A stretch of DNA of 64,000 nt from an uncultured Candidatus Binatia bacterium (GTDB lineage: Bacteria; Desulfobacterota; Binatia; UBA9968; JAJDTQ01), in the NCBI GenBank assembly GCA_965242525.1, contig OZ251459.1, positions 2,080,001 through 2,144,000 of the forward strand, given 5' to 3'. The notes below the pieces were generated by a model. The model saw nothing but the letters and a program-made list of their open reading frames with translations. It did not search any database and was not told the origin of the DNA. This document shows, one piece after another, positions 1,277 through 54,781 of this stretch (position 1 is its first letter; each line of letters begins with the position of its first letter). The translations under genes and the position numbers were made by a program.

Positions 1277-1280
1277 GCCG

Positions 1281-1934: not shown

Positions 1935-1984
1935 AAACACCGGACGCCCCCCGGCGGTGCTAAGGCAAAGCAAGGGTTAGTCCC

Positions 1985-3328
1985 ATGGACCGGATCACAC
2001 TGAAGAACTTCCGCTGCTTCCGCGAGGAGCAGACCGCCCGCCTTGCGCCCCTGACCCTGCTCGTGGGCGAGAACAGCACCGGCAAGACCTCCTTCCTGGC
2101 CCTGATCCGCGCACTGTGGGACGTGGCCTACCGGTCTCGCGTTCCCGACTTCAAGGAAGACCCCTATGATCTCGGCAGCTTCGACGAGATCGCCCATCAC
2201 CGGGGAGCACGGGGAAGCAGAGCAGAGACCTTTGAGGGCGGGTTTGATGTTACCCTGGAGAAAGGACGAAGTGAACTGACAAACCGCTATCGGTTCGAGG
2301 CAACCTTTGGGAAAGAGGGCGTCGTTCCCGTTCCCGTGAGGAGGTTTCTTTCCGATATGGATAAGACTGGTTGGGTCGAATATGGCTCTCAAGAAGATCC
2401 AATCCGTTTCGGCACCACCAGGGGCGCTTGGGCGTGGAAAGATCTGGATGGTTTCAACCGTCAATTGAAAAAGGATGACCGCGTACTTCCGTTCTACCAC
2501 CTTGTTATGAGCAGATACCGACGAAGAACACCCCTTGATCTGACGACGCTGGACGGCCCAAAACAACCAAGCAGCAATGATTGGAAAGTGATCGACCTGA
2601 TTTGCGATGCTATGGCCTCCTTCATCAACTTCCCGGAGCGGCTGTATGCTGGCGCTCCGGTCCGCTCCAAGCCGCGCCGAACATATGACCCTTCACGTAC
2701 CACACGAGACCCTGAAGGCGATTACGTCCCGATGTATCTTGCCCATGTACACTTTCAGGACAAGGAAAAATGGAACAGACTCAAAATTGCCCTCGAAAAC
2801 TTTGGGAAGGCATCCGGCCTCTTCAACGAAATATCGGTGAAGCCTTTGGGCCACAAGGAAAGCGGACCCTTTCAGATACAGGTCAGGGGGTTCGGGAAAG
2901 CGAGGCGAAAAGGACCGCAACGGAACCTGATCGACGTGGGCTATGGCGTCAGCCAAGTACTGTCGGTTATCATCGAACCCCTACGTAGCGACGCCCCGCA
3001 AAGGTTTCTGCTGCAACAGCCCGAAGCGCACCTCCACCCCAGCGCCCAAGCTGCTCTCGGAAGCCTGTTCTGCCAAATCGCCGGACCGGAACGTCAACTG
3101 GTGGTCGAAACGCACAGCGACCACCTGATCGACCGTGTACGCATGGACGTGCGCGACGGCAAGACAAAACTGAAACCCGAAGATGTTTCCATTCTGTACT
3201 TCGAGCGGAACGATTTGGATGTACACATCCATTCCTTGCGTTTCGATGAAGACGGGAATGTCCTGGACGCTCCCGATGGCTATCGTCAATTCTTTCTGGA
3301 AGAAACGCGAAAATCCCTGGGGCTGTAG
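1985..3328 (+). CDS. AAA ATPase with DUF3696-like C-terminus
   Basis: LKNFRCF, GENSTGKT, DVGYGVSQVL, LLQQPEAHLHP, VETHSDHL, C-terminal FDEDG..PDGYRQFF. Confidence 0.85.
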   Translation: MDRITLKNFRCFREEQTARLAPLTLLVGENSTGKTSFLALIRALWDVAYRSRVPDFKEDPYDLGSFDEIAHHRGARGSRAETFEGGFDVTLEKGRSELTNRYRFEATFGKEGVVPVPVRRFLSDMDKTGWVEYGSQEDPIRFGTTRGAWAWKDLDGFNRQLKKDDRVLPFYHLVMSRYRRRTPLDLTTLDGPKQPSSNDWKVIDLICDAMASFINFPERLYAGAPVRSKPRRTYDPSRTTRDPEGDYVPMYLAHVHFQDKEKWNRLKIALENFGKASGLFNEISVKPLGHKESGPFQIQVRGFGKARRKGPQRNLIDVGYGVSQVLSVIIEPLRSDAPQRFLLQQPEAHLHPSAQAALGSLFCQIAGPERQLVVETHSDHLIDRVRMDVRDGKTKLKPEDVSILYFERNDLDVHIHSLRFDEDGNVLDAPDGYRQFFLEETRKSLGL

Positions 3329-3331
3329 AAG

Positions 3332-3383
3332 ATGTGTGCAATCTTCCGTCGCAGTCATCGGGACATGCTGAGAAGGAACCCCC
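3332..3383 (+). pseudogene. Stub of ATPase partner gene (MCAI fused to a short tail), probable internal deletion
   Basis: ATG 3 nt after ATPase stop encoding MCAI-FRRSHRDMLRR; resembles, from recollection, the two ends of the small PIN-like genes that follow DUF3696 ATPases. Confidence 0.45.
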
Positions 3384-4505
3384 ATGCCAAACTTGATCGA
3401 ATCCATACACATCAGAGGCTTCCGCTCCCTTGCGGACGTGGAAATCAACGAACTGCCCCGGGCCGCGGTGCTGATAGGAGGCAACGGCTCCGGCAAGTCC
3501 AACGTCATTCGCTTCTTCGAGATGCTGAGCTGGATGCTGCGGTCTCGCCACCTGGGTGACTTCATAGAGCGGCACGGAGGCGCTGACAACCAGTTGTTCG
3601 GCGGGAGCAGGGTCACCGCCCGCATGGAGGCCACACTGACCATGCGCACCCCGGTGGGTCGAAACGACTATCGGTTCGCGCTCGCTCACGTCCACCCGGA
3701 CCGTTTCATCTTTGCGGACGAGGCGTTCCGCTTCAGCCGGGACGATCATCCCGACGAAGCCGAGTGGCAACACCTTGGGGGCAGCCATTCGGAAGCGAAG
3801 ATCGTCGAGGCCGCGCAATCGCCCCAGTTCGGGGGCAATCGGACCACGGCGCGGGTCCTCCTCCATCTCCTGCGCAACTGCGCAGTCTATCAGTTCCAGG
3901 ACACCTCCGACCGATCCGGTTTCAATATCCGATGGGACGCAGAGGACAATAACTACCTCCGTTCGGACGGGAGCAACCTGGCCGCGGTGCTGCTCCGCCT
4001 GGAACGCGAAGACCCTCAACGCTTCGAGACGATCTGCCGCCACGTCGAACGGGTGCTGCCGGTCTTCGACCGTTTCCGGATCGAAGACCGCTATGGAAAA
4101 GCCCTGCTCGGATGGAAGGCCAAGGGGATGGACAAGACCTTTGGCGCGCACCTGACCTCCGACGGCTCGCTGCGTCTCTTCGCCCTGGTGACGCTGCTGA
4201 ACCTCCCGCCCGATATGCTGCCCGACGTCATCCTGCTGGACCAGCCGGAGTTGGGGCTGCATTCCGCGGCAATCACCCTGCTGGGCAGCATGATCCGGTC
4301 GCTCTCCACGGACAGGCAGATCATCGTGGCAACCCAATCCCCCCTGCTCGTGGACGGGTTCGATCTCGACCAGATCCTGGTGCTGGACCTGCACGAGGGC
4401 CGGACGGAGGTCCGCCGGCTCGACGAAAACGACTACCGCCACTGGCTGGAAGAATACACGACAGGCGAACTGTGGCAGAAGAAGCTGCCTGGGGGGCGCC
4501 CGTGA
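3384..4505 (+). CDS. AAA_21 ATPase, paralog copy 1, Walker B E->Q
   Basis: GGNGSGKS, TSDGSLR, ILLDQPE, VATQS; highly similar to 4655-5776. Confidence 0.85.
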   Translation: MPNLIESIHIRGFRSLADVEINELPRAAVLIGGNGSGKSNVIRFFEMLSWMLRSRHLGDFIERHGGADNQLFGGSRVTARMEATLTMRTPVGRNDYRFALAHVHPDRFIFADEAFRFSRDDHPDEAEWQHLGGSHSEAKIVEAAQSPQFGGNRTTARVLLHLLRNCAVYQFQDTSDRSGFNIRWDAEDNNYLRSDGSNLAAVLLRLEREDPQRFETICRHVERVLPVFDRFRIEDRYGKALLGWKAKGMDKTFGAHLTSDGSLRLFALVTLLNLPPDMLPDVILLDQPELGLHSAAITLLGSMIRSLSTDRQIIVATQSPLLVDGFDLDQILVLDLHEGRTEVRRLDENDYRHWLEEYTTGELWQKKLPGGRP

Positions 4506-4623
4506 TCCATCTCGATACCGAAAGCCTCTTGACGGTCCTCTGGCAGCAACGCAGGTTGGCTTGGCCGCGATCCGCGCGCAATACCCGCGCTTCAACGATT
4601 GGGTGAGGCGCCTGGAATTGTAG
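4502..4623 (+). pseudogene. Internally deleted DUF4276 gene
   Basis: GTGATCC start overlaps ATPase stop as in the intact paralog 5773-6411; remainder encodes RYRKPLDGPLAATQVGLAAIRAQYPRFNDWVRRLEL*, matching that paralog's C-terminus. Confidence 0.85.
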
Positions 4624-4654
4624 TTTACAAGCGCCTGCTTAGCAGGAAAAATCT

Positions 4655-5776
4655 ATGCCGAACCTGATTGACTCCATCCACGTCAAAGGCTTCCGCTCCC
4701 TGGCGGACGTGGAAATCAATGAACTGCCCGGGGCCGCGGTGCTGATAGGATGCAACGGCTCTGGCAAGTCCAACGTCATTCGCTTCTTCGAGATGCTGAG
4801 CTGGATGCTGCGGTCTCACCGTCTGGGTGATTTCATGGTACGGCAGGGCGGTGCTGACGACCAGTTATTCGGTGGGAGCAAGGTCACTTCCCGTATAGAC
4901 GCCACACTGACCATACGTACCGAGGTAGGTCAAAACGATTATCAATTTGCACTCGATCACGTCCCCCCAGACCGCTTCGTCTTTGCGAAAGAGGCATTCC
5001 GCTTCAGTCGAGAGAATCATCCTCCCGAACCCGACTGGCAGCACCTTGGAAGCGGCCATTCGGAAGCGAAGATCGTCGAGGCAGCACAATCGTCCCAATT
5101 CGAGGGCAATCAGACGACAGCACGGGTCATCCTCCATTTACTACGCGGTTGCGCGGTCCATCAGTTTCACGACACCTCTGACCGATCGAATTTTAAGCTC
5201 AGCGGGGACGTGGATGAAAATAACTACCTCCGTTCGAACGGGAGTAATCTGCCCGCGATACTGCTCCGCTTGGAACGCGAAGACTTCCGACGTTTCGAGA
5301 TGATCTGCCGCCACATCAGCCGGGTACTGCCGGTCTTCGACCGCTTCCAGATCGAAGAGAGCTATGGAAAAGTTCTGCTCAGATGGAAAGCCAAGGGGAT
5401 GGATAAGACCATTGGGGCGCACTTGACCTCCGACGGCTCCCTGCGTTTCTTCGCCCTGGTGACGCTGCTGAACCTCCCACCGGAGATGCTGCCCGACGTC
5501 ATCCTGCTGGACGAGCCGGAGTTGGGGCTGCATCCCGCGGCGATCACCCTGCTGGGCGCCATGATCCGGTCGCTCTCCACGGACAGACAGATCATCGTAG
5601 CAACCCAATCCCCCTTGCTCGTGGACGGGTTCGATCTCGACCAGATTCTGGTGCTGGACCTGCAGGAGGGCCGGACGGAGATCCGCCGGCTCGACGAAAA
5701 CGACTACCGCCACTGGCTGGAGGAATACACGACGGGCGAACTGTGGCAGAAAAACCTGCTTGGAGGGAATCCGTGA
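4655..5776 (+). CDS. AAA_21 ATPase, paralog copy 2
   Basis: GCNGSGKS, TSDGSLR, ILLDEPELGLHP, VATQS. Confidence 0.9.
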   Translation: MPNLIDSIHVKGFRSLADVEINELPGAAVLIGCNGSGKSNVIRFFEMLSWMLRSHRLGDFMVRQGGADDQLFGGSKVTSRIDATLTIRTEVGQNDYQFALDHVPPDRFVFAKEAFRFSRENHPPEPDWQHLGSGHSEAKIVEAAQSSQFEGNQTTARVILHLLRGCAVHQFHDTSDRSNFKLSGDVDENNYLRSNGSNLPAILLRLEREDFRRFEMICRHISRVLPVFDRFQIEESYGKVLLRWKAKGMDKTIGAHLTSDGSLRFFALVTLLNLPPEMLPDVILLDEPELGLHPAAITLLGAMIRSLSTDRQIIVATQSPLLVDGFDLDQILVLDLQEGRTEIRRLDENDYRHWLEEYTTGELWQKNLLGGNP

Positions 5777-6411
5777 TCCGTCTCGCCCTTTCGGTAGAAG
5801 GTCTAACTGAGGAGGAGTTCGTCAAGTCCGTCCTTGCCGACCACCTGTGGACAGCGAAGGTTTATGCAATTCCGGTCAAGCTTGGCCGTGCTCGCGGTAG
5901 CGGTCCTGACGGCGGCAACGTCAGCGTTAAACGACTCGTCTCGGACATGAGCCTCCTGTACTGGTCCTTTGATTTCGTGACCTCACTCGTCGATTTCTAC
6001 GGATTTCGCGACAAGGGAAAAATGACGGTAGAGGAATTGGAGGAACGTCTCACCCGGGAAATCCAAGCTCAAATCCCTCGCGGTTGGGACCAGAGAAGGG
6101 TAATTGCCTATGTTCAGAGACATGAGTTCGAGGGTCTGCTGTTCTCGGACGTCACGGCGTTCGGAACCTCGATAGACGCATCGAACCAAAGCATAACGCA
6201 ACTTCAAGAGACTCGTTCAGCATTTCCGACGCCGGAAGACATCAACGACAACAAAGAAACGGCGCCGAGCAAGCGTATCGCGAAAGCCATATCGACATAC
6301 CAAAAACCTCTTGACGGCCCCCTGGTGGCAATGCAGATTGGCTTGGATAAGATCCGCGCACAATGTCCGCGGTTCAACGATTGGGTGACGCGCCTGGAGA
6401 CCCTGGCGTGA
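5773..6411 (+). CDS. DUF4276-family protein
   Basis: GTGA overlap with ATPase; VEGLTEEEFV, SLVDFYG, HEFEGLLFSD, PEDIND..TAPSKRI, CPRFNDWV. Confidence 0.85.
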   Translation: MIRLALSVEGLTEEEFVKSVLADHLWTAKVYAIPVKLGRARGSGPDGGNVSVKRLVSDMSLLYWSFDFVTSLVDFYGFRDKGKMTVEELEERLTREIQAQIPRGWDQRRVIAYVQRHEFEGLLFSDVTAFGTSIDASNQSITQLQETRSAFPTPEDINDNKETAPSKRIAKAISTYQKPLDGPLVAMQIGLDKIRAQCPRFNDWVTRLETLA

Positions 6412-6419
6412 CCGTGCCC

Positions 6420-7363
6420 ATGCTTCACAGGTTGTCCCTGCTCCATTTCCGAAGTCTTCCGGCTGCGGAATTGGAGTTCGACAACCCGACCTTTCTGGTG
6501 GGCCAGAACGGCGCCGGAAAGAGCAAACGAGATGCAACGGTCAACGAAACTGCTTCGACCGCTCGGAAGGCACATGGAAGAGCAGCGAAAAATCCTTGGA
6601 TCCGGCCTTGGAATCACGGTCCTTGGCCCTTCCGGTAGTCGCAGGCGACACGCGGTTTGCTGCGGTATGGCGGTTTCTGTCGGAGATGCGGGTGTACCGG
6701 ATCGAACCGGGTGTCCTCCGAGAGATGCAGGACCCGGATGGCGGGGGCCGGCTGCGAATCGACGGAAGCAACGCCGCGAGCGTGCTGCGCGAGATCATGC
6801 GCGATTCGCCGGACGACTGGGAGAACATCCGCGGCCTTCTCGAAAGTATCGTCCCCGGCGTGATGGACGTGAAACCGAAGAAGCTCGGCAACAAACTGGG
6901 GCTGGAGTTCACGCAGGAATGGCTGACGTCGAGACCCCTCAAGTTCGAGGCGTACAACATGTCCGACGGAACGTTGCGAGTCTTGGGCATGCTTGCCGCA
7001 GTCTTTCAACGGCCGGCGCCCTCGGCCCTGGTCATCGAAGAGCCGGAAGCCACGATACATCCCGGAGCGCTCGGCTCGGTGCTCGACCTGCTGCGACACG
7101 CAGGGCGCTTTACCCAGACGGTGGCGACGACCCACAGCCCGGATATTCTCGACGCCTCATGGATCGAGGATCGCCATCTACGGATCGTAGGCTGGGACCG
7201 GGGAGCGACACAGGTAGCGCCCGTCTCCGAACCTGTACGCAAGGCGCTGAAAGAGCACCTGATGGGCGCAGGGGAGATGATGCGCTCCAACGCCCTGACG
7301 GCCGCCGAAGGGTCCAACCCCGACCCGGCCGCAATCTCGTTGTTCGAGGATGTTGCCGAATGA
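6420..7363 (+). pseudogene. AAA_21 ATPase broken by deletion/frameshift after Walker A
   Basis: ATG 6420 gives MLHRLSLLHFRSL..GQNGAGKSK; the C-terminal half (MSDGTLR, VIEEPEATIHP, TTHS) is in another frame (ORF 6596-7363). Confidence 0.8.
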
Positions 7364-7455
7364 TGATCCAACCCCGCGCCTTCGGCGCCCTGCTGCGCGC
7401 AATGGGGCGGGAAGTGGCCCCGTGGCCTCCTCCCGCCTGGAGGGAGGAGGTGTAG
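7360..7455 (+). pseudogene. Stub of DUF4276-like partner (MMIQP fused to RAFGALLRAMG..PWPP tail)
   Basis: ATGA overlap with ATPase stop; 31 codons ending immediately before the DUF499 ATG and carrying its GGAGG RBS. Confidence 0.55.
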
Positions 7456-10257
7456 ATGGACCCCTGGTACAAGGTCGTCACTCCCCGCAAGGAGGTCCGC
7501 GAAGGCCGGTCGTTCAGCCCGGACGAGTTCGCCATTGCGCTGGAACAGGTGGTGGCCGGGACCGCGCCGCCGGACTACCGGGACCCGGCGCAGTTCTTCT
7601 CGCGCACCTGCTTCACCCGGGCCTTGACGGATCATTCCGGCATGGTGCTGCGGCGCCTGGCCGGACGGACCGAGAACACCGCCCCGGTGCTGACCCTGAT
7701 TACCCAGTTCGGCGGCGGCAAGACGCATACGCTGACCTCCCTCTACCACCTGGCCCGGTCCGGGGCCGGCGCGTCCGGGCTGCCCGGGGTCCCGGGGCTG
7801 TTGCGCGACGCGGGCATGGCCGAAGCTCCGGCCGCCCGGGTCGGCGTCTTCGTGGGCAACGCCTGGGACCCCGCGGAGGGGCGGGAGACGCCTTGGATCG
7901 ACTTGGCGCGCCAGCTTGCCGGCGACGCGGGGGCGGCCGCCCTCGGCCCCTCGGCCAGGGACACGCCGCCGGGGACCGAAGCGCTGGCCAAGGTGTTTGC
8001 GGCCGCGGGGGCGCCGGTGCTGCTGCTGTTCGACGAGGTGCTGAACTTCGTCAACCGCCACCGGGGCATGGCCGAGGGCTTCCATGCCTTCGTACAGAAC
8101 CTGACGGTGGCGGTCACCGGCGCGACCCGGGCCGCGGCGGTCATCAGCCTGCCGCGCAGCCAGGTGGAGATGACCGACTGGGACCAGCAGTGGCAGGACC
8201 GGCTCACCAAGGTGGTGCGCCGGGTGGCACGGGACTTGATCGCCAACGACGAGGCCGAGATCGGCGAGGTGGTGCGCCGCCGGCTGTTCGAGGACCTGGG
8301 CCCGGAGCGCGCCCGCAGGAAGGTCGCCCGGACCTATGCGGACTGGTGCTTCGAGCGCACCGCCCGGCTGCCCGCGGAGTGGACCGCGGTGGACGCCGCG
8401 GCCGAGACCCGGGCGCGGGACTTCCTGCGCGGGCGGTTCGAGGGCTGTTACCCCTTCCATCCGGCCACGCTGTCGGTGTTCCAGCGCAAGTGGCGCGCGC
8501 TGACGCAGTTCCAGCAGACCCGCGGCACGCTGGCCATGCTGGCCCAGTGGATCTCCTGGGCGGCCCGGGAGGGCTTCCAGCAGGCCCGGCGGGAGCCGCT
8601 CATCACCCTGGGGTCGGCGCCGCTGCATGTGCCGGAGTTCCGCGCCGTCCTCCTCGGCCAACTGGGCGAGTCGCGGCTCGACACCGCCATCGACGCGGAC
8701 TTGGCAGGGCTGGCCCCGCGCGCCAGGGCGCTGGACGTGGACACCCGAGGGCCGCTCCGGGACATCCATCGCCGGGTAGGCGCGACGATCCTGTTCGAGT
8801 CGTCCGGCGGGCAGGTGGACAAGGTGGCCCACCTGCCGGAGTTGCGCTTCGCCCTCGGTGAACCGGAAGTCGATACCACCTCCATCGACAGCGCCGCGGC
8901 GGCCCTTGAAGCCGCGGGGTTCTTCATCCGCAAGGTCGGCTCCGACGGTTTCCGCATCCACCACCAGGCGACCCTGAAGAAAGTGGCCAGCGACCGGCGC
9001 GCCTCCCTGGACGAGGAAACGGAGATCAAGCCCGCCATGCGGAAGCTGATCGAGGGCGCGTTCCAGCGCGGGGCCAGCGTGCCGCTGGTCCTCTTTCCGC
9101 AGGACGGCGCCGCGGTCCAGGATTCGCCCCGGCTGACGCTGGTGGTGGTGGACCCGGACGTGGAATGGGAGGGCCGGGGCGTCGAGCGCATCCGCAGGTG
9201 GACCACCGAGCGCGGCTCCTCCCCGAGGCTGTACCCGGGCGCGCTGGTGTGGTGCGCCAAGAAGCCGGGACGGGAACTGCGGGAACGGGTCGCCACTTGG
9301 CTGGCCTGGGAGCGCGTGGCCGGAGAGATGGCCGAAGGCGTCCTTGGCGCCGAGTTCGACCGGAGGGAACGCGACGAGTTGCGGTCCAAGGTCAGGGAGG
9401 CGAAGGAAGAGGCCGTGGACGAGGTGTGGGCCGGCTACCGCTTCGCGACGTTGACCGACGCCAAGGCGGAGACCGGCCTCAAGACCCTGGACCTGGGCGC
9501 GGGCCACGCCAGCGCCAGCGACACGCTGTGCGGGCGGGTGATCGGGACCTTGAAGGCCGAGGCCCTGCTGAACGAGTCGGTGGGGGCCGGCTACATCGAC
9601 CGGAACTGGCCGCCGGCCTTCGAGGGCACGGGGGCCTGGCCCCTGGCCGGCCTGCGCCAGAGCTTCCTGAACGGCTCGTTGACGCGGCTGCTGGACCCGG
9701 ACGCGGTTCTTCGCCGGAAGGTGGTCGAGTTCGTGGCCAACGGAGACTTCGGCTTGGCTTCCGGGGAAAGCGGCAACGGCCGATACCGGAGGGTGTGGTA
9801 CCAGGAGCCGGTGGCCCCGGAAGAGGTGGCCTTCGAGTCGAACGTCTTCCTGCTGGGCAAGGCCAGAGCCGAAGCGCTTCGAGCGCCCGAGACCCCGCCC
9901 GAGCCGCAACCCGATCTTCCTCCGGACCGGGACGACCGCCCCGAATTGAAGCCGGACCCCGATCCCGACACCCGGCCCGTCTCGCCCCCCGCGCAGACCG
10001 GGGGCGAGACGACGTTGCGGCTCACCGGCGTCGTGCCCCTCGAAGCGTGGAACAAGGTCGGGATCCGAATCCTGCCGAAGCTCCGGTCCGGCAACGATCT
10101 GAGCCTGGGCATCGAGTTCTCCGTGAACGTCGAGTCACGACTCTCCGGGAACCTGGAGTCGGAATTGAAACAGGCCCTCGCCGAACTCGGCCTCGGGGAC
10201 CAGGTGGACATCAAGAGCCGGGACCGAGGTTCCGAAGATGACCGAAAGACTCATTGA
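7456..10257 (+). CDS. DUF499-domain AAA+ ATPase (BrxC/PglY-related; restriction-like DUF499/DUF1156 systems)
   Basis: PWYKVVTPR..EFAIALEQV, TQFGGGKTH, LLFDE, YPFHP, FQQTRGTL motifs; strong RBS. Confidence 0.88.
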   Translation: MDPWYKVVTPRKEVREGRSFSPDEFAIALEQVVAGTAPPDYRDPAQFFSRTCFTRALTDHSGMVLRRLAGRTENTAPVLTLITQFGGGKTHTLTSLYHLARSGAGASGLPGVPGLLRDAGMAEAPAARVGVFVGNAWDPAEGRETPWIDLARQLAGDAGAAALGPSARDTPPGTEALAKVFAAAGAPVLLLFDEVLNFVNRHRGMAEGFHAFVQNLTVAVTGATRAAAVISLPRSQVEMTDWDQQWQDRLTKVVRRVARDLIANDEAEIGEVVRRRLFEDLGPERARRKVARTYADWCFERTARLPAEWTAVDAAAETRARDFLRGRFEGCYPFHPATLSVFQRKWRALTQFQQTRGTLAMLAQWISWAAREGFQQARREPLITLGSAPLHVPEFRAVLLGQLGESRLDTAIDADLAGLAPRARALDVDTRGPLRDIHRRVGATILFESSGGQVDKVAHLPELRFALGEPEVDTTSIDSAAAALEAAGFFIRKVGSDGFRIHHQATLKKVASDRRASLDEETEIKPAMRKLIEGAFQRGASVPLVLFPQDGAAVQDSPRLTLVVVDPDVEWEGRGVERIRRWTTERGSSPRLYPGALVWCAKKPGRELRERVATWLAWERVAGEMAEGVLGAEFDRRERDELRSKVREAKEEAVDEVWAGYRFATLTDAKAETGLKTLDLGAGHASASDTLCGRVIGTLKAEALLNESVGAGYIDRNWPPAFEGTGAWPLAGLRQSFLNGSLTRLLDPDAVLRRKVVEFVANGDFGLASGESGNGRYRRVWYQEPVAPEEVAFESNVFLLGKARAEALRAPETPPEPQPDLPPDRDDRPELKPDPDPDTRPVSPPAQTGGETTLRLTGVVPLEAWNKVGIRILPKLRSGNDLSLGIEFSVNVESRLSGNLESELKQALAELGLGDQVDIKSRDRGSEDDRKTH

Positions 10258-10763
10258 GCCATGAAACCCAGGAACGCGACGAGTCCAAGCACGATAGCCA
10301 ATGTCACGTAGCTGACCTGCTTCACCTTCTGTATCTGATGAAACTGACGTTCGACAACTTCCCCGAGCGCTCTTCGGGTTTCCTGACTACTCTCCTCGAT
10401 TCGTGTACCGACCTTGCCGATCTCATCGAACTGCTCACGCATGTGGCGTTCGACAACTTCCCCGAGCGCCCTTCGAGTTTCCTGACCGCTCTCCTCGATT
10501 CGCGCGCTGACCTTGCCGATCTCATCCAGTACGCCCCTGGGGTCGTGTCGCTTGAACGCCTCTACAGCCTCTCGAAACGACCCCAGGGCGCTGTGGAGAG
10601 ACTCCACGGCTCCTTTCGTCGATCTGGCGAGACTGCGGATGTCAGCGCCGGCCTTGGTCAGTGATTTTTCGAGAGAAACCTGCTGTTCGAGATGCCCGAG
10701 CAACTCCTTGACTCGCTTCTCCGTATCCGTGATCCGCTCGCTAACCTCTGTCATCAAGTCCAT
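10251..10763 (-). CDS. Coiled-coil protein with internal 33-aa duplication and C-terminal TM helix
   Basis: GGAGG RBS before ATG 10763; heptad-like composition; tail YVTLAIVLGLVAFLGF; start overlaps end of RecQ gene. Confidence 0.7.
   Translation of the reverse strand: MDLMTEVSERITDTEKRVKELLGHLEQQVSLEKSLTKAGADIRSLARSTKGAVESLHSALGSFREAVEAFKRHDPRGVLDEIGKVSARIEESGQETRRALGEVVERHMREQFDEIGKVGTRIEESSQETRRALGEVVERQFHQIQKVKQVSYVTLAIVLGLVAFLGFMAQ
10348..10527. repeat. 99-bp-period intragenic direct repeat
   Basis: GTTCGACAACTTCCCCGAGCGC at 10349 and 10448; encodes DEIGKV..RIEES.QETRRALGEVVER twice. Confidence 0.85.
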
Positions 10764-13700
10764 GTGAAACTCCTCCAAGCGCCCGCGCCACTCCCCGCGC
10801 GCCATACCCTTGAATCACGCGGTCCACCGCGGACTCCATCCTGTGGACCATTCCATGGAGTATCTGCGCTGTCATCGCCGCCGACACACGCGGGTCGGCA
10901 AGACCCCTCGCTCTCTCCCTTCCCCTTTTCAGAACATGCTCGAACTCGGTTCCCTCCGAGTCAAGATCAAGCAGAGCAACGGTCAAGGGCAAACCAAGAC
11001 CCGGTGCACGAGTGTGCGCAAAATCGAACAGACCGTCGATGACCGCGGCAACGTCTTCCTGCGCAAGCTGGTAATCGTGAATACCCTTGCGCATCGATGC
11101 GCCGATTCCCCGGGAGCTGACCCGATCGTCATGATCGGAGCACATCGATTCGGCAACGGCCCGCGCCAAAAGCAGCCCCGGATGGTCCGGATACGACTCC
11201 AGTGCGCGGATGCAGAGACCGCGCAACTCGCCCGCGTCCATGGGTGTCTGGACCTTGTAGACAAGCTCACTCCAGGCCGGCAGATCGATCTCTTCGTCGT
11301 CGAGCAGTTGGGCGATACGCTCGGCGCCGATACCCTCCTGAAGATAGTCGAGCAACCGCACGCGGATCTCCGCGTCATTCCTTGCCTGACGGGCCAGCAA
11401 GACGGATTCCTGAATCATCCGACGACGCGAACGCTCGATGACGTCGTAAGTAAACTCGATCAGTATCCGGGCAAGACCGGAAATGAGGTCGAATGGCCTA
11501 CCCTTGTTGATCTGCTCCAGCCTGCGAGCAACTATCTTGCTCTTTGCCGGTTGCGCTGCATGGATATGGTCAAAGAGTTTCTTCTTGCAGTGACCGAGAT
11601 CGAACGCCTTGACGTGGACGTTGAACTTGCGTGAGCCGTAGTCCACCTCATAGTCGTCAATCACCCCGATCCTAAGCAGCCGATGGATCGCCCTTTCCTT
11701 GTGAACCTGTTCGCTTTCGAAAGGCAACTCCACCAGTCGGCGTGCAGAGAGCTTGCCCATCTCTGTGAGAACGCCCTCAACGTCACTGAGTTCCTGATAG
11801 GCTCCGCTGAAAGATTGAAGATGGAACCAGAGAGATAAAGTCACGTCGTCTCCGGTCTTGCGTTGGTCGTTGGCTTGGTTGAAACGCTCACGGACCGTTT
11901 CGAGGTCGAGATCTGGATCGAGCAACTCGTCCGAGCGATTCGCATCGTACTCGGAAAACACCATGACACATCGAGCAGATTGTCGGTCTCTGCCGGCGCG
12001 GCCTGCTTCCTGATAGAAGCCCTCAAGCGAGGACGGCATACCAAAATGCACCGTGTAACGGATGTTCGGCTTGTCAATGCCCATGCCGAAGGCCTTGGTG
12101 GCGACAAGGACAGGTGCGCGGTTTCGCTTGAACTGGCGTGCGTTCTCGCGCTTCACGGCGTCCCAGGTGGCCTTGTCCTTCGATCTTGGCGGCAGACCGG
12201 AATAAACGGTGACCTGCGCGCCCGTCGCGGTTCTCGCGGCCGCGCGTGCATCGTCCACGCCGTGAACCCGCCCATTGACCGTAGGCACGAACACGATCCC
12301 GGACGCCGTACTGCGGCCAGAGGGATGGAAGAACTCCGTTCGCGGGAGTCCGAACTTTGCTGGCAGCTTGTTCAGGACGCCGCGAAGCGCCGCCGTTGCG
12401 TCTTCGCTTGGCGAGGTCCTTACGATTTCAAAGTGGAGTTCGGGGCGATCAAATGATTCAGGCCGAATTAGTGCGTCGGACCGATTCCGGTCGATGTCCA
12501 GCACCGTGAGCATGTCGATAAGGACCACACGCGAAGCCGTGCCGGTGAGGGCAAGGAGCGGAGGGATATTTTTCTCCCGGTCTGCACAGAAACGACGCAG
12601 GTTGTTTGCAAGATTGAGATACGCAGGTCTGAAATCATGCCCCCAATCCGATACACAGTGCGCTTCGTCGATGACCGCAAGATTGACAAGAGAGGTCTCT
12701 GCCAATGCCCGAAGGGTGCTTCGGAACTGCGGTGACTGCAATCGTTCCGGCGAAAGCAGAACGAATTGGTACTCGCCACGTTCGACACGCAACAGGACAT
12801 GTTTCCGTTCGACAGGGGTGGCGAGACTGCGGGCGATCGGCGCTGCACGATCGATTCCGTAAGCCTGCAACCCCTCGACTTGATCCTCGATCAAGGAAAC
12901 CAGCGGATCTACCACCAGCGTAATGCCCGGCATCAGAAGGCCGGCAAGCTGGTAGATAAGGCTCTTGCCTGCGCCGGTGGGCAGAAGCACCACACAATCG
13001 TTTTGGCGCAGTATGTTGAAGATTGCCTCTCCCTGGTTTGCCCGGAACTCGAACTTGCGGAAGATGTTCTGAAGGAAGGTCTTGAGAGGCGCATGGGCCT
13101 GATCGTAACTCGACGGTGCAATGGCCTTGCGCTCGAAGTCGAAGGTGTTCTCGGTTGCGAACGCCGCTGGCACGTATGCGGGTCGGATCACGAAATCCGT
13201 TCGCTCGTCGTGATGGACTTGATGAAATGGGCTTGCCGTGGATTCGACGACGATTCGGAGATCTTCACCCTGCGCTTCGCAGTCCGCGGCTTCACGCCAA
13301 CCACCATCGACGTCGCGAATCTCCGTTACCGTAAATCCGTCATCCGCTCGGACGGTGCAGCGTACCGGAACCGAACATCCGTCATACAGGGCATCGAATC
13401 CGCCAAGCAGCCTCAGTATATCCCGCACGCCTTGAGCCGCCACGGAACCGGCGCCGACCAGATCGATCCGCCATACCTCGTCAGCCGTCAGCCAACCAAA
13501 GGCGATAGCACGCGCTATGGCAAACTGCACCTTTGCAGCCACCGCACAATCGATGACGAAAGAAGCGAATTTCCTGTCCACGGAGGACGACCCGCAAGCT
13601 GTCAACGCACCCTCGCATCGGCGACGGATTTCGTCGAGAACTTTTCCGCTGCCGGAAACGACTTCTTCGTTGCTCACGCGAAGCACGTCGATGCCGATGT

Positions 13701-14610
13701 TGTGCAAGGACTCATCGCGCAGTTTATCGACAAGTTCCGACGAACCGTGTTCGGGGCCGTCTATTTCGATGGCGAGAGCAGAACCTCCGGGGTGATCGAA
13801 CAGAAAGTCAACACGTCGTGCGCTGCCGTCATCGTGCTCACCCGACGATTCGAGTAGCTTGTCGAGGGGAGCTTGAGGCGTGAACCAATGACCTGCTGGC
13901 GGCCCGAGGACGTCGGGAACCCAACCATCGAGGAAGCGCATCTCGGCATCACTGCCCAACAGTCCGGTTTCGGAACCGCGTACAAAACTGAATGCCGGGT
14001 CAAGGACAAAGGGCTTCCGCTCGGCAAGGACTGCCAACACATTCTCCGGCGTTACGGGTCGCCGTACTCCGGGCCGCAACTCCCAGCCAACCTCATGGCC
14101 TTCGACTTCGAGGTCCTGTACCTCGTCCATGAGTCCGTGCGCCTGGAGCGCCTCGCGTTCGACTTCGAGTGTAGGCAAGGGAGTCCGCCCGCGTTGCAGG
14201 ACCTTGACGAGCAGCGCGCTCACGAAGCGAGCGTGGTCCGACGGATGACGAGAGCGGCCTCGACCTGAAAGCACAATGCACTGGCTGAGAGCTTGCTCGA
14301 GACGTTTATCCTGATGCAATTGCTCTCGTAACAAGCCGGGCATGGCCCCAACCGATACGTACTCCGAGACGAAATCGAGGCGCCGGACACCCTCTTGCCA
14401 TGAGACGGGCAACGCTGCGAGGGAATGGGCCTTGACTTCCGCAGTTGACCCCACATCTGTTATCGGAGGCTGGTCTTCGGCATCCCGTGTTCCCCTGCAA
14501 TCCGGAAACCGCGTGCAGCCCCAAAAATGGCTGCCCGCTTTGCGGCCCTGCCTCGCGGTGCGAAGCGCCATCGGAGCAGAACACTTGGGGCAAGGAGGAG
14601 ATTCTGACAC
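10741..14610 (-). CDS. Topoisomerase-type C4 zinc ribbon + DUF559/Vsr-like endonuclease + RecQ-family helicase fusion
   Basis: CPKC..FWGCTRFPDC; RVDFL..AIEIDGPEH..RD..L..G..VLR; LPTGAGKSLIYQL, SPERL, IDEAHCVSDWGHDFRPAY, TKAFGMGIDKPNIR, YQEAGRAGRD. Confidence 0.88.
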   Translation of the reverse strand: MSESPPCPKCSAPMALRTARQGRKAGSHFWGCTRFPDCRGTRDAEDQPPITDVGSTAEVKAHSLAALPVSWQEGVRRLDFVSEYVSVGAMPGLLREQLHQDKRLEQALSQCIVLSGRGRSRHPSDHARFVSALLVKVLQRGRTPLPTLEVEREALQAHGLMDEVQDLEVEGHEVGWELRPGVRRPVTPENVLAVLAERKPFVLDPAFSFVRGSETGLLGSDAEMRFLDGWVPDVLGPPAGHWFTPQAPLDKLLESSGEHDDGSARRVDFLFDHPGGSALAIEIDGPEHGSSELVDKLRDESLHNIGIDVLRVSNEEVVSGSGKVLDEIRRRCEGALTACGSSSVDRKFASFVIDCAVAAKVQFAIARAIAFGWLTADEVWRIDLVGAGSVAAQGVRDILRLLGGFDALYDGCSVPVRCTVRADDGFTVTEIRDVDGGWREAADCEAQGEDLRIVVESTASPFHQVHHDERTDFVIRPAYVPAAFATENTFDFERKAIAPSSYDQAHAPLKTFLQNIFRKFEFRANQGEAIFNILRQNDCVVLLPTGAGKSLIYQLAGLLMPGITLVVDPLVSLIEDQVEGLQAYGIDRAAPIARSLATPVERKHVLLRVERGEYQFVLLSPERLQSPQFRSTLRALAETSLVNLAVIDEAHCVSDWGHDFRPAYLNLANNLRRFCADREKNIPPLLALTGTASRVVLIDMLTVLDIDRNRSDALIRPESFDRPELHFEIVRTSPSEDATAALRGVLNKLPAKFGLPRTEFFHPSGRSTASGIVFVPTVNGRVHGVDDARAAARTATGAQVTVYSGLPPRSKDKATWDAVKRENARQFKRNRAPVLVATKAFGMGIDKPNIRYTVHFGMPSSLEGFYQEAGRAGRDRQSARCVMVFSEYDANRSDELLDPDLDLETVRERFNQANDQRKTGDDVTLSLWFHLQSFSGAYQELSDVEGVLTEMGKLSARRLVELPFESEQVHKERAIHRLLRIGVIDDYEVDYGSRKFNVHVKAFDLGHCKKKLFDHIHAAQPAKSKIVARRLEQINKGRPFDLISGLARILIEFTYDVIERSRRRMIQESVLLARQARNDAEIRVRLLDYLQEGIGAERIAQLLDDEEIDLPAWSELVYKVQTPMDAGELRGLCIRALESYPDHPGLLLARAVAESMCSDHDDRVSSRGIGASMRKGIHDYQLAQEDVAAVIDGLFDFAHTRAPGLGLPLTVALLDLDSEGTEFEHVLKRGRERARGLADPRVSAAMTAQILHGMVHRMESAVDRVIQGYGARGVARALGGVSHGLDDRG

Positions 14611-14702
14611 GGTATTGTCGCCGTTCTGAACGCCGGAAGCCGGGAATCATCCCGGAGCGAGGCAGGCATGTACGGACACGCGCCCTGATGCTATGCGACC
14701 CG

Positions 14703-14731
14703 ATTATAGAGCCACGAACGGCCAAGCGCAA
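14703..14731 (-). promoter_or_regulatory. Sigma70-type promoter for the RecQ fusion
   Basis: Minus strand TTGCGC-17 nt-TATAAT about 90 nt upstream of start. Confidence 0.6.
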
Positions 14732-15032
14732 GTCACAGCCCGCCAACGAAACAAGGGAGCGACCCGGCATCCTTCCCGTCATGGTTGACCCATGCTGCGC
14801 AACGGCTGAATGGACCACGTCGACGGCCACGGCGTCCCTTCGGACGCCGAACGAGCTTCCCTGCTTTCAGGCATGGTCCGTGCCTGTCGGTTGCCCAGGA
14901 CCCGTCCTTGCAAGTATGATCAGAAGCGCGGTTCAGGAACGTTCCGCGTACCGTTTCCGACGGAAAGCTACGAGGGTGTCTCAGGGGCGTAAGCGCCGCG
15001 GACGGTCACCCTGGCCCCGCACCGAGGAACCC

Positions 15033-17783
15033 ATGCACGAGAATGAGATCCGGTTCGAGTTGAACGGCAGGACGCGCCGGGCCGCGGTGGCCCCGGAACT
15101 GCTGCTGTCGGACTTCCTGCGGCGCTCGTTGGGGCTTCGGGGCGTCAAGACCAGTTGCGAGGTGGAGGTGTGCGGCGCCTGCACGGTGCTGCTGGACGGC
15201 CGCCCGGTGAGTTCCTGCGCCACCCTGGCCCGGGAGATCGACGGCCGCTCGCTGGTGACCATCGAGGGGTTGGCCGACGGGGACGAGCTGCACCCGGTGC
15301 AGGAGGCGTTCTGGGAAGAAGCGGGGTTCGAGTGCGGCTTCTGCACGCCGGGCATGGTCCTTGCGGCCTGCGCCCTGCTCCACGAGAACCCGGACCCGTC
15401 GGAGGACGCGATCAAGGCCGCGCTGGACGGCAACATCTGCCGCTGTACCGGCTACCTTTCCATCATCCGGTCGGTGCGGAGGGCCGCGGAGTTGCTGCGC
15501 GGGCAGGGGGCAGCCCCTGCGAGGCCCGCGGACGAGCGCCGGCTCGACGGCGCCGCCAAGGTGCGGGGGGAGCCGGTGTACACCGCGGACCTGACGCGCC
15601 CGGACATGCTCCATGCGCGGGTACTGCGCAGTCCCCACGCCCACGCCCGCATCCTGGGCATCGACACCGCGGCCGCGGAGGCCCATCTCGGGGTGGCCGC
15701 GGTGCTCACGTCCGCGGACCTGCAGGACATCTCCCCCTACTACGGCCCGCTGGTGAAGGACATCCCGGTGCTGGCCGTGGACAAGGTCCGCTATGAAGGA
15801 GACCCGGTGGCGGCCGTGGCCGCGGAGACCCCGGAGGCGGCGACCGAGGCGCTGGGGCTCATCCGCGTGGAGTACGAGCCGCTGCCGGCGCTCCTGACCC
15901 TGGATGCGGCCCTGGACCCCGACGCCCCTCCCCTGCACGAGTCCGTGAGCGAGCACGGCACGAAATACCCCGGTTATCCCGACATCGACGACGAGGCCCG
16001 GAAGCACGCCAACGTGAGCTTCCACTACGAGCGCAGCCAGGGCAGCGTCGAGGAAGGGTTCGCCGCCTCGGAACGGGTCTTCGAGCACACCTTCGAGTTC
16101 CCCAAGGTCTCCCACTACTCCATGGAGCCGCAACTGGTCCTGGCCGAGTGGCGCGACGACGGCGTCACCGTATGGGCCTCGACCCAGCACCCGTTCCTCA
16201 TCCGCCGGGAGTTGGCCGAGATGTTCGGCCTGCCGCAGGAGCGCGTGCGGCTGGTGGCGCCGCTGGTGGGCGGGACCTACGGCAACAAGAACCACACCAA
16301 GCTCGAACCCCTGGCGGTGGCCCTGGCGCGCAAGGCGCGGCGTCCGGTGTTCCTGCACCTCTCCCTCGAAGAGGAGTCCCGCACCGTGGGCAAACCGGCC
16401 ATGCGCGTCCGGCTCCGCACCGGGGTCGATGGGGACGGCCGCCTGCTGGCGCGGGATTGCCTGGTGCACGTGGACGGCGGGGCCTACTCGGACTCGGGAC
16501 CCCGGGTGACCCAGAAAGCGGGCTACCGGGCGCCCGGACCCTACCGTATCCCCCATCTCCGGTCCCACGCCTATACCGTCTATACCAACACGGTCCCCGC
16601 GGGCGCCTTCCGCGGCATGGGCACGCCCCAGGTGGTGTGGGCCTACGAGTCCCAGATGGACATGATAGCCCATGAGATGGGATGGGACCCGGTGGAGTTC
16701 CGGCTCGGGAACTTCCTTCGGAAGGGGGAAGCTTTCGCGCCGGGGGAGACGCCCCTCGACTGCGACTTGGCACAGGGCCTGCTGCGGGCCGCCCGGGAGA
16801 TCGGCTGGGGCGAGGAGGGAGCCGCGGACGCGGACTGCGGCATCGGCTTCAGTTGCGGGGTTAAGGACGGCGGCGGCAACTACAAGGTCTCGTGTGCGCG
16901 GGTGGAGATCGACGACGCCGGAACGGTCACGCTGCACGAAGGCACGGTGGAGATCGGACAGGGCTCCCACACCGCCCTCTCCCGGATCGTTGCGCGCGAG
17001 CTCGGGGCGGCGCCGTCCGCGGTGCGGCTGGCCCCGCTGGACACGGACTCGACGCCCTTCGACATGGGGACCTACGCCAGCAGCGGAACCACGGTCATGG
17101 GCCTCGCGGTCCAGAAGGCCGCGCAGGCGGTCCGGCGGCAGCTCGTCGAGGCCGCCCGTTCACTGGCCGGGAACCCTGCCGCCACCGTGATCCTCCGGCG
17201 CGGCGAGGCGCGCGTGGGGGAGGTCGCCTTTCCGTTCTCGACGCTGGTGCAGCGCCTGAAGGGCGCCGGGGGCGCCATCGTGGGAGAAGGCCGGCAGGAA
17301 AGCCCGCAGGACCCCGATGCCCCCCTCGGTGCGCGGGCGCCGTTCTGGGAAGTGGGATGGGGCGCCGCCAAGGTCCGCGTGGACCGGGAAACGGGCGAAG
17401 TCCGGGTCCTCAAGTACGTGTCCATCGCGGACGCGGGCAAGGCCATCAACCCCCAGCAGTGCCACACCCAGGAACAGGGCGCCTTCCTGCAGGGCCTGGG
17501 ACAGGCCCTGTTCGAGGAGACCGTCTATGAGAACGGCCTGATGCTGACGCCCGACGCCCTCACCTACCGGCTCCCCAAGGTCTCCGACCTGCCGGACGCT
17601 CTGGTGAACGTCATCTTCGAGGACGGCAACGGCGCCGGCCCCTACGGCGCCAAGGGGTTGGGGGAAAGCGGCATCCTCACCGTCCCGTCCGCCATCGCCA
17701 ACGCCGTGGCCCGGGCCGTGGGCGTGCGTATCACCCGCCTGCCGCTCACCGGCGAAAAGGTCTGGCGCGCCCTGAAGGGGTGA
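15033..17783 (+). CDS. Xanthine dehydrogenase/CoxL-family molybdopterin protein with fused N-terminal 2Fe-2S (CoxS-like) domain
   Basis: GAGGA RBS + ATG 15033; CEVEVCGAC, CGFCTPG, NICRCTGY; RSPHAHARI, AFRGMG, EIGQGS, GPYGAKGLGE. Confidence 0.9.
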   Translation: MHENEIRFELNGRTRRAAVAPELLLSDFLRRSLGLRGVKTSCEVEVCGACTVLLDGRPVSSCATLAREIDGRSLVTIEGLADGDELHPVQEAFWEEAGFECGFCTPGMVLAACALLHENPDPSEDAIKAALDGNICRCTGYLSIIRSVRRAAELLRGQGAAPARPADERRLDGAAKVRGEPVYTADLTRPDMLHARVLRSPHAHARILGIDTAAAEAHLGVAAVLTSADLQDISPYYGPLVKDIPVLAVDKVRYEGDPVAAVAAETPEAATEALGLIRVEYEPLPALLTLDAALDPDAPPLHESVSEHGTKYPGYPDIDDEARKHANVSFHYERSQGSVEEGFAASERVFEHTFEFPKVSHYSMEPQLVLAEWRDDGVTVWASTQHPFLIRRELAEMFGLPQERVRLVAPLVGGTYGNKNHTKLEPLAVALARKARRPVFLHLSLEEESRTVGKPAMRVRLRTGVDGDGRLLARDCLVHVDGGAYSDSGPRVTQKAGYRAPGPYRIPHLRSHAYTVYTNTVPAGAFRGMGTPQVVWAYESQMDMIAHEMGWDPVEFRLGNFLRKGEAFAPGETPLDCDLAQGLLRAAREIGWGEEGAADADCGIGFSCGVKDGGGNYKVSCARVEIDDAGTVTLHEGTVEIGQGSHTALSRIVARELGAAPSAVRLAPLDTDSTPFDMGTYASSGTTVMGLAVQKAAQAVRRQLVEAARSLAGNPAATVILRRGEARVGEVAFPFSTLVQRLKGAGGAIVGEGRQESPQDPDAPLGARAPFWEVGWGAAKVRVDRETGEVRVLKYVSIADAGKAINPQQCHTQEQGAFLQGLGQALFEETVYENGLMLTPDALTYRLPKVSDLPDALVNVIFEDGNGAGPYGAKGLGESGILTVPSAIANAVARAVGVRITRLPLTGEKVWRALKG

Positions 17784-20068: not shown

Positions 20069-20161
20069 TTTCACGAAACCGGCGACCGGACGACGGTGCG
20101 GATCATCTCGGCACGGCCGGCTATGCGGAGCGAACAACGCCAGTTCGAGTCAGGTAGATGA
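20069..20161 (+). pseudogene. C-terminal remnant of BrnT-family toxin
   Basis: FHETGDRTTVRIISARPAMRSEQRQFESGR* (RIISAR motif); ATGA overlap with next gene; 5' part replaced by REP region. Confidence 0.7.
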
Positions 20162-43055: not shown

Positions 43056-43130
43056 TGGTTATACGTATCGGCCAATGAAGTCTATCGTACCGGCTCGGGA
43101 AAACCTTTGCCGTCATGGAGGACACCGAAA

Positions 43131-43751: not shown

Positions 43752-43860
43752 GGCATTCTCCCACGACCAGCGGGCCGGAGGCCGGTACGTTCCTGAAACC
43801 TGCGCCGCTCCCTCACGCGGAAGCGCTACGGGCCTCGGCGGATCGGCTCCGGGCGCGTGC

Positions 43861-54695: not shown

Positions 54696-54781
54696 TGTGT
54701 CCTTTGTTGCCGAGCGCGCCCTGACATGCAAGCACTGCACATGCCCGCGCCCTCATCCGAACCCTCTTCCAGAGGGAGAGC

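Follow-up and report, generated by a model that had tools for sequence, protein, structure and literature searches.

A conserved two-gene module joining a zinc-ribbon, Vsr/DUF559-type nuclease and RecQ-family helicase fusion to a tail-anchored helical protein: a candidate bacterial defence operon

Introduction

What is the role of a 1289-amino-acid (aa) protein that fuses a zinc ribbon, a Vsr-like nuclease and a RecQ-family helicase, and why is it encoded together with a small membrane-anchored protein? These questions are raised by a locus on the reverse strand of a 64,000-nucleotide (nt) stretch of DNA from an uncultured Candidatus Binatia bacterium (assembly GCA_965242525.1, contig OZ251459.1, positions 2,080,001 to 2,144,000), which we refer to as the window. 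We call the gene for the fusion protein gene A and that for its partner gene B. An earlier note, made from the letters of the window, had proposed that the two form a new helicase-nuclease defence module, perhaps tethered to the membrane, and the comparisons described here partly support that interpretation. Our comparison of homologous loci argues that genes A and B are a real, conserved two-gene accessory module. That they are also a horizontally mobile operon defending against invading DNA, whether phage, plasmid or another mobile element, is the reading we favour, although we place it somewhat short of an even chance.

Results

Gene A: a RecQ-family motor with additional modules

Coordinates of both genes and their parts are given in Table 1. 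Counting Pfam domains that scored above their curated cut-offs, gene A contains a zinc ribbon of the PF01396 family (35.1 bits; cut-off 32), a DUF559 domain at residues 278-332 (PF04480; 33.4 bits; cut-off 20.6), DEAD at residues 524-695, and Helicase_C at residues 772-875; a match to MTES_1575 fell below that family's own cut-off. The NCBIfam model recQ_fam (TIGR00614) places the protein in the RecQ helicase family (259.3 bits; cut-off 219.8). The motor motifs, namely Walker A TGAGKS (K549), motif II DEAH (648-651) and motif VI QEAGRAGRD, were located. K549, D648-H651 and QEAGRAGRD show no variation across 26 aligned full-length sequences (alignment A1), in which conservation spans the full length of gene A, through the motor and beyond it.

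Like canonical RecQ, gene A has both RecA-like lobes and all of the helicase motifs (1oyw, E 3.7e-55), and the solved structures of RecQ, BLM, RECQ1, RECQ5 and WRN cover residues 509-891 of gene A only. It differs from canonical RecQ in having 500 extra N-terminal residues, 400 different C-terminal residues and a patchy, accessory setting, and it scores well below the cut-offs of the RecQ orthologue models (TIGR01389, 279.5 against 640.2; PRK11057, 223.6 against 1015). Pfam reported no RQC, HRDC or RecQ zinc-binding family in gene A. The fusion of zinc ribbon, Vsr/DUF559 nuclease and RecQ motor, which the earlier note had read from the translation, is thus borne out by Pfam, NCBIfam and Foldseek, as is its helical C-terminus without an obvious HRDC domain by Pfam and by the all-helical model described below.

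AlphaFold2 models of residues 1-510 and 881-1289 reached pLDDT scores (predicted local distance difference test) of 88.8 and 91.2, respectively. Within the N-terminal model, the Vsr-like domain resembled 3hrl with a Foldseek probability of 0.99 and the I-Bth0305I catalytic domain (3r3p) with one of 0.93; the Foldseek search with the N-terminal model as a whole returned nothing at E<=0.001. A phmmer comparison of gene A with 3hrl aligned the IEIDGxxH block (E 8e-4). When 56 N-terminal sequences were aligned, taking in distant relatives at 14-31% identity, the positions left invariant among residues 1-510 were R140, G141, D268, E282, D284, G285, H288, D295, R298, R311, G372, and L509. The eight invariant columns from D268 to R311 constitute the D...ExDG..H...D..R signature of the DUF559 domain, and because these signature columns stay invariant, selection has preserved the nuclease site. 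Sequence and model both assign the domain to the Vsr/DUF559 endonucleases (PF04480), with predicted catalysis. In Foldseek, the modelled zinc ribbon was similar to the Zf-GRF fingers found in NEIL3 and APE2, at a probability of 0.98-1.00; such fingers are modules that bind single-stranded DNA (ssDNA). The two N-terminal alpha/beta domains (~66-215 and 340-500) have no Pfam or PADLOC family.

The C-terminal model consists of a helical hairpin and a winged-helix-like unit (892-1004), followed by an all-helical domain of ~285 residues (1005-1289). The 26-sequence alignment contains four conserved blocks in this region (ERSRRR, DYLQEG, DAGELRGL and YPDHPGLL). Foldseek found no match to the C-terminal model in the PDB or BFVD at E<=0.001 (best E 0.3 and 0.12), and the best ESM Atlas score for the C-terminal domain, 0.79, gave no usable lead.

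Two kinds of variation were seen at the N-terminus of the family. Thirteen of the 26 aligned relatives begin at a conserved Met14, so that the ribbon's first CxxC is missing from them; miscalled start codons in the public annotation seem a better explanation for this than biology. Relatives P0004, P0016 and P0044 have an extra helical extension of ~90 aa ahead of the zinc ribbon.

Gene B: a tail-anchored helical partner

The listing of open reading frames (ORFs) starts gene B at an ATG at 10805, which gives 184 aa. We prefer the ATG at 10763 because (i) a GGAGGA lies 7 nt upstream of it, (ii) its close relative P0123, 96% identical, is 170 aa long, and (iii) the alignment with the partner at the Bryobacterales locus L001 (34% identity over 97 aa, E 9e-14) starts from the Met at 10763. 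With this start, gene B overlaps by 23 nt the end of gene A, whose TAG stop codon lies at 10741-10743, in agreement with the overlap and the 170-aa length that had been claimed. The overlap, together with the Shine-Dalgarno-like sequence inside gene A, indicates that gene B is translationally coupled to gene A.

The composition of gene B is that of a helix-rich protein (P+G 0.09; AELKRQM 0.54). Its membrane helix has lysines ahead of it and one residue behind it, so that the protein fits the tail-anchored class, defined by a lone hydrophobic helix no more than ~30 residues from the C-terminus, positive charges N-terminal to it and no signal peptide; insertion is predicted. By tail-anchor topology, the helical part would face the cytoplasm, with the anchor usually in the inner membrane. 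The description of gene B as a coiled coil with a C-terminal transmembrane helix therefore stands as far as the helix is concerned; a coiled coil is suggested by the composition and by weak similarity to the coiled-coil parts of JetC, ZorA, Rad50 and apolipoprotein. The nearest ESM Atlas clusters to gene B were unnamed hypothetical proteins (0.91, under the level of reliable recognition). Aligned partner proteins share a conserved N-terminal helix, which is plausible as the docking element for gene A.

Gene B also contains a recent tandem duplication (Table 1). The related partner P0124, of 141 aa and 73-88% identity, is short by about one 33-aa copy, and internal repeats are also found in partners P0130, P0132 and P0133. 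It seems that partner stalks lengthen and shorten as repeats are gained and lost.

Co-inheritance of the two genes

A genome scan using generic RecQ motifs as patterns returned 80 loci. Eight of these (L001, L002, L003, L004, L017, L027, L033 and L041) match gene A past the helicase core; L021 and L029 were later recognised as further family members. At all eight loci, an ORF of 144-231 aa on the same strand starts 1-26 nt ahead of the big gene's stop, and in six of them its product has a membrane helix at the C-terminus. The 72 remaining loci served as a control, from which we kept the 66 with at least 600 nt of downstream sequence and dropped six. Such an ORF with a membrane helix was present at two of these 66 other RecQ-type loci, compared with six of eight in the family (Fisher p=4e-6). 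One of the two control positives is the Hymenobacter locus L021, itself a distant family member: its big protein is 31% identical over residues 219-889, including the nuclease domain, and is followed after a 9-nt gap by a tail-anchored partner of 278 aa.

Two plasmids also carry the pair. On Rhodothermus marinus plasmid pRHOM17201 (L082), the big gene overlaps by 4 nt the gene for a 202-aa tail-anchored partner; on Salinibacter plasmid pSR56 (L081), a gap of 102 nt separates it from the gene for a 292-aa partner with a membrane helix near its C-terminus. Altogether, a small helical gene lies downstream of the big gene at 11/11 other loci and the product is anchored at 9/11, bearing out the expected co-occurrence. 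Overlaps of 1-26 nt are likewise found at 9/11, with gaps at L021 and L081.

The partners diverge fast, such that P0002 alone retrieves two sequence relatives among 5.8 billion proteins. Those of L041 and L027 are 56% identical, and the L017-type partner has many relatives of 217-247 aa. Wherever the partners are close enough to compare, their alignments indicate true homology. Because the same arrangement recurs in distant genomes, we consider it to be beyond chance, and the comparison indicates that gene B has been inherited together with gene A across phyla.

At two loci, the big gene differs. In L033 (6632-10072, + strand) it is split among ORFs of 461, 197 and 487 aa, upstream of an intact 189-aa partner that is without a membrane helix; this is probably a decaying copy. 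In the Balneolaceae locus L041, a 109-aa Zn_ribbon_3 gene (826-1155, + strand) is located 16 nt upstream of a big protein that has no zinc-ribbon match, and may represent a split form of the gene A N-terminus.

Size and spread of the family

A word-indexed search with gene A returned 1568 matches at E<=1e-3, ordinary RecQs among them. The best 120 of the 1568 are full-length relatives of 1033-1388 aa and 49-98% identity, and PF04480 is present in 110 of these 120. The names given to the listed relatives are 'DEAD/DEAH box helicase' and 'RecQ' only. With residues 1-510 as the HMMER query against 1.84 billion cluster representatives (50% identity clusters), the proteins matched numbered 3556 at E<=1e-3, falling to 396 at E<=1e-10 and to 110 at E<=1e-30; long representatives among the matches listed are mostly ~1200-1350 aa. 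The fused architecture is thus stable and moderately widespread. At least six phyla are represented among the loci, namely Acidobacteriota, Proteobacteria, Chloroflexota, Actinobacteria, Bacteroidota and Rhodothermota. Gene A copies are mostly on large chromosomal contigs of up to 6.8 Mb. There were no full-length copies in 50,697 phage records, which gave helicase-core matches only, and three of 203 matching plasmid records go past the helicase core, none at 80% coverage.

Composition and genomic context

A putative promoter-like site is present ~90 nt upstream of the gene A GTG (Table 1). TATAAT is a perfect -10 box, and the -35 box agrees at 3/6 positions (9/12 in total), so that of the near-consensus promoter described in the earlier note the -10 half stands and the -35 half is weak. 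The lower GC content noted for the pair relative to core genes was confirmed: gene A and gene B have values of 0.590 and 0.569, as against 0.712 for the neighbouring HmaC-like gene and 0.659 for the whole window, and GC at third codon positions (GC3) is 0.65 for the pair and 0.91 for the HmaC-like gene. This neighbour, a DUF499 gene, is convergent with gene B and overlaps it by 7 nt, so that the pair does adjoin a DUF499 island, as had been stated.

The genes flanking the pair are different at each of 12 loci, the window included, and no housekeeping context is conserved among them, as the reading of the pair as an accessory module predicts. In the window, the genes beyond the HmaC-like one, as seen from the pair, are those for three ABC ATPases of the HEC-01A type, for an NsnB-like ATPase and for HEC-01B; a molybdenum oxidoreductase is encoded on the other side. 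A Druantia-type set directly precedes the pair in L003 (Table 1). Upstream of the pair on the L081 plasmid are a DNA methyltransferase, a PDC-S14 GIY-YIG protein and a 1003-aa NTPase; the L082 plasmid carries TnpB, an annotated CARF gene and a second helicase-plus-anchor module. An integrase is found ~500 nt downstream in L002, a DDE transposase in the flank of L001, and DUF4134 and DUF1896 genes in that of L027; we take the latter two to be typical of Bacteroidota conjugative elements. PADLOC recognised neighbours at E<=1e-8 in three of the 12 loci (the window, L003 and L081), and L082 has its annotated CARF gene. This context fits a horizontally moving accessory module and is compatible with defence, although 12 loci do not prove enrichment.

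The second module on pRHOM17201 (9149-12632, - strand) converges on the RecQ pair and comprises a 210-aa gene annotated as 'DEAD/DEAH box helicase family', a 775-aa protein without a family, and a 184-aa tail-anchored helical protein. We considered the 775-aa protein as a possible homologue of gene A and ruled it out, finding no similarity. The two Rhodothermus partners are homologous over their N-terminal 80 residues (33% identity, E 4e-7), suggesting that the anchor protein may be an adaptor common to different helicases.

Comparison with known systems

In PADLOC (2023 release), residues 1-510 and the last 409 residues of gene A had no match, even at E<=1, and PHROGs had none for the same N-terminal 510 and C-terminal 409 residues. 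For gene B, no specific match was found in PADLOC, NCBIfam or PHROGs. Full-text literature searches, with bioRxiv supplements outside their scope, revealed no description of this pair and no paper joining DUF559 with RecQ. The main text of the Hma-embedded, component-modularity and 7-deazaguanine preprints and of the DefensePredictor paper contains no RecQ/DUF559/Vsr system. The view that the architecture belongs to no named system thus holds for the specific parts of the pair across PADLOC, NCBIfam, PHROGs and the literature; the pair is probably undescribed, although a name newer than PADLOC 2023 is possible and DefenseFinder models lay outside the comparison.

Several systems nevertheless share features with the pair. 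When the whole of gene A was compared with PADLOC (25 of 26 matches listed), the best match to the helicase core was DpdF (9.4e-91). Against the NCBIfam equivalog for DpdF, gene A scored 171.1 bits, compared with a cut-off of 550; there was no other dpd gene among the scanned neighbours, and the N- and C-terminal parts of gene A are unrelated to Dpd. PsyrT also matches the core (1.2e-63), over positions 8-241 of the 689 in its model. The pair shares with PsyrTA/RqlHI a RecQ-family core joined to a potentially toxic domain and a two-gene operon with a small partner. It differs in that the additional domain there is a C-terminal phosphoribosyltransferase (PRTase), whereas gene A has an N-terminal Vsr/DUF559 nuclease and a zinc ribbon, together with a C-terminal helical domain that PsyrT does not have; moreover, gene B is tail-anchored and helical and has no PsyrA match in PADLOC, which sets the pair outside PsyrTA/RqlHI.

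Hhe, said to have been reported by Gao et al. in 2020, reportedly consists of an SF1 helicase, from another superfamily than the gene A motor, with a C-terminal nuclease, encoded by a single gene without a partner. It would resemble gene A in combining a helicase and a Vsr/MTES_1575-type endonuclease in one polypeptide; no HheA model matched residues 1-510 at E<=1 or appeared among the listed whole-protein matches. Kiwa couples a membrane component to a soluble DNA-targeting effector. In Zorya (PMC11946911), a membrane protein with a long cytoplasmic helical element accompanies a helicase or nuclease effector, a further likeness to the pair. Unlike these systems, the pair has neither a MotAB-like channel nor KwaA/KwaB homology, and it has a single fusion protein as effector. 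Of ZorA, gene B matches just the coiled-coil tail, and weakly so (17.5 bits; cut-off 190), which does not place the pair in Zorya.

Discussion

Bacterial immune systems are repeatedly built around helicase-nuclease proteins, of which Cas3, Hachiman, Druantia, Hna and DdmD are examples, and sensing coupled to the membrane, known from Zorya and Kiwa, is a theme of more recent date. If the defence reading is true, the pair would unite the two in minimal form, with one RecQ-family effector that carries an ssDNA zinc finger along with a nuclease of the repair type (Vsr), and a one-helix anchor whose stalk length is varied by duplication. We postulate that gene B would dock gene A on the cytoplasmic side of the membrane, or keep it restrained there, until something triggers it. 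Through its zinc ribbon and RecQ motor, gene A would load on DNA with single-stranded regions, ends or forks; it would translocate 3'->5', a polarity assumed from the RecQ family; and the Vsr-like domain would nick or cut the unwound DNA, destroying the invader. The fast-changing length of the helical stalk of gene B, seen in the in-gene duplication and in partners of 141-292 aa, could set reach or specificity. A bolder version, in which the pair is an undescribed, widespread immune system whose tail-anchored stalk holds the RecQ-Vsr protein at the membrane to intercept entering DNA, the stalk being an interchangeable helicase adaptor, strikes us as doubtful.

Several observations weigh against a defence role or the membrane-tethered form of it. 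Only three to four of the 12 loci have known defence genes beside the pair, and in L004, L017, L021, L033 and L041 there was no recognised defence or mobile gene in the sequence examined. The Caldilineaceae-type partner at L017 and the partner at L033 (2/11) are without a membrane helix. A sigma-70-type consensus scan omits the promoter-like site, reporting one site in 10000-15200 where 1.2 are expected. Finally, Vsr-type nucleases and RecQ helicases also serve as repair enzymes.

The strongest rival, to which we nonetheless give a fairly low probability, is a toxin-antitoxin-like pair of the RqlHI/PsyrTA type, in which gene A would be genotoxic through its nuclease and gene B would mainly restrain it. 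Because PsyrTA is listed as an anti-phage system, this explanation overlaps with defence, which would come about by release of the toxin (abortive infection) instead of by an attack on foreign DNA at the membrane. The PsyrT match to the helicase core and the tight, apparently translationally coupled operon with its strictly co-inherited partner are consistent with it, and PMC4670107 describes the E. coli RecQ-like protein RqlH as genotoxic unless RqlI, an operon partner that binds it, is present. RqlH toxicity, however, sits in the PRTase domain, and Pfam reported none in gene A; the partner here is downstream and membrane-anchored, unlike RqlI and PsyrA, in keeping with the lack of a PsyrA match in PADLOC; and the broken big gene next to an intact small gene in L033 is compatible with this rival without being diagnostic. 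An accessory role in DNA repair, recombination or uptake, in which a RecQ paralogue bearing a Vsr-type mismatch or nicking endonuclease would process, for example, transforming DNA or membrane-attached replication intermediates at the membrane, seems to us less likely still. RecQ helicases, Vsr endonucleases and GRF-type zinc fingers are classical repair modules; in L021 the upstream flank contains a C5-cytosine methylase fragment, and the CoiA N-terminal domain of a competence protein is encoded near L041. Against this, no repair-gene neighbourhood is conserved, the pair is compositionally foreign and found among defence or mobile genes in 7/12 loci, and gene A falls under the RecQ orthologue cut-offs and is without RQC and HRDC.

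The presence of the pair on two Rhodothermota plasmids and, at other loci, next to an integrase, next to a transposase or close to DUF4134/DUF1896 genes could be taken to mean that it serves a mobile element selfishly, in maintenance of a plasmid or integrative and conjugative element, replication, entry exclusion or anti-defence. We regard this as improbable, given the absence of full-length copies from the phage records and from the matching plasmid records, few of which go past the helicase core, the mostly chromosomal location of gene A, and the lack of any replication or transfer gene consistently adjacent to it. Least credible of all, and very improbable in our view, is that the pair belongs to the neighbouring Hma system, with gene A acting as HmaA or the pair as HmaC-dependent 'Hma-embedded' cargo. 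The pair does abut the HmaC-like gene, HEC-01 cargo lies beyond that gene, and neither HmaA nor HmaB is visible in the window. Yet there is no HmaA model among the 25 of 26 PADLOC matches to gene A that were listed, the two units are convergent and differ in GC3, and RecQ, DUF559 and Vsr are absent from the main text of the Hma-embedded paper. A recurring link to Hma was rejected, as no HmaC-like gene is present at any of the 11 other loci and the large NTPase of L081 is unrelated to HmaC.

The defence reading, if true, would offer a simple two-protein model for how membrane location distinguishes incoming DNA from self. If gene A is instead an RqlHI-like genotoxin or a repair factor, the family would still amount to a new subfamily of RecQ whose partner is obligate. 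In either case, three domains of gene A and its partner have no family model, and the C-terminal fold has no solved relative.

Other defence-type genes in the window

The low-GC array of ABC-type ATPases at 2-6411 (+ strand) is apparently 'Hma-embedded candidate 01' cargo in several copies, as judged from its family matches. The DUF499 ATPase next to it is HmaC-like by PADLOC (1.2e-87) and scores 81 bits against an NCBIfam cut-off of 1200. A 307-aa ORF with no Pfam, PADLOC or NCBIfam family abuts it upstream (6532-10257 for the two together, + strand). With no HmaA helicase or HmaB methylase visible within the 64-kb window, the Hma system is either incomplete or cut by the window start.

Table 1. 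Positions of the gene pair, its parts and other defence-type genes. Coordinates are those of the window except where another locus is named.
Feature	Position	Strand	Basis or remarks
Gene A, 1289-aa zinc-ribbon / Vsr-like nuclease / RecQ-family helicase fusion	10741..14610	-	GTG start
C4 zinc ribbon, residues 7-45; Cys7, Cys10, Cys32, Cys38	14476..14592	-	Pfam PF01396 Zn_ribbon_Top1
Alpha/beta domain, no family assigned, residues ~66-215; invariant R140, G141	13966..14415	-	Confident AlphaFold2 model
Vsr/DUF559-type endonuclease domain (predicted), residues ~221-336	13603..13950	-	Pfam PF04480, Foldseek, phmmer
Second alpha/beta domain, no family assigned, residues ~340-500	13111..13593	-	AlphaFold2 model
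Two-lobe RecQ-family helicase core, residues 509-891	11938..13086	-	Pfam, NCBIfam, PDB alignments
Family-specific C-terminus, residues 892-1289	10744..11937	-	AlphaFold2 model, conserved blocks
Gene B, 170-aa helical tail-anchored partner	10251..10763	-	ATG at 10763
Shine-Dalgarno-like GGAGGA, within 3' end of gene A	10771..10776	-	Sequence reading
The one transmembrane helix of gene B, at its C-terminus, residues 149-169	10257..10319	-	Translation, hydropathy in other partners
99-nt (33-aa) tandem duplication in gene B, 1.8 copies, 90% identical	10348..10526	-	Repeat analysis
Promoter-like site: TTGCGC (14731-14726), 17-nt spacer, TATAAT (14708-14703)	14703..14731	-	Sequence reading
DUF499/HmaC-like gene	7456..10257	+	
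HEC-01A-like genes	2-1276, 3384-4505, 4655-5776	+	Last two both 373 aa
NsnB-like ATPase with DUF3696 tail	1985-3328	+	Pfam, PADLOC
HEC-01B (DUF4276)	5743-6411	+	Pfam, PADLOC
267-aa ORF, Tiamat TmtA match 5e-45 over first ~230 positions only	20158-20961	+	Models 1300-1800 residues; also Sacsin/HATPase_c_3
Gabija pair, GajA (PADLOC 8e-253) and GajB (1.6e-212), 4-nt overlap	30806-34644	+	GC3 0.73, below neighbours
PDC-S01 (AAA_14 plus DUF4143), 2.9e-155	43115-45208	+	PADLOC, Pfam
PIN-domain protein	49977-50363	+	Family match
Type IIG restriction-methyltransferase (N6_Mtase plus Type_ISP_C)	51126-54740	-	Family matches
Druantia-type set at L003 (Dehalococcoidia): DruF/DruL-like, 1806-aa DruE, DruK; immediately upstream of the pair, same orientation	114-7572 of L003	+	

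Further along the window, a complete Gabija pair was found, and the PDC-S01, Type IIG and PIN genes are set among the core genes for SerRS, RNase HII and SecA. The 267-aa ORF with the TmtA match looks like either an N-terminal module standing by itself or a remnant left by truncation.

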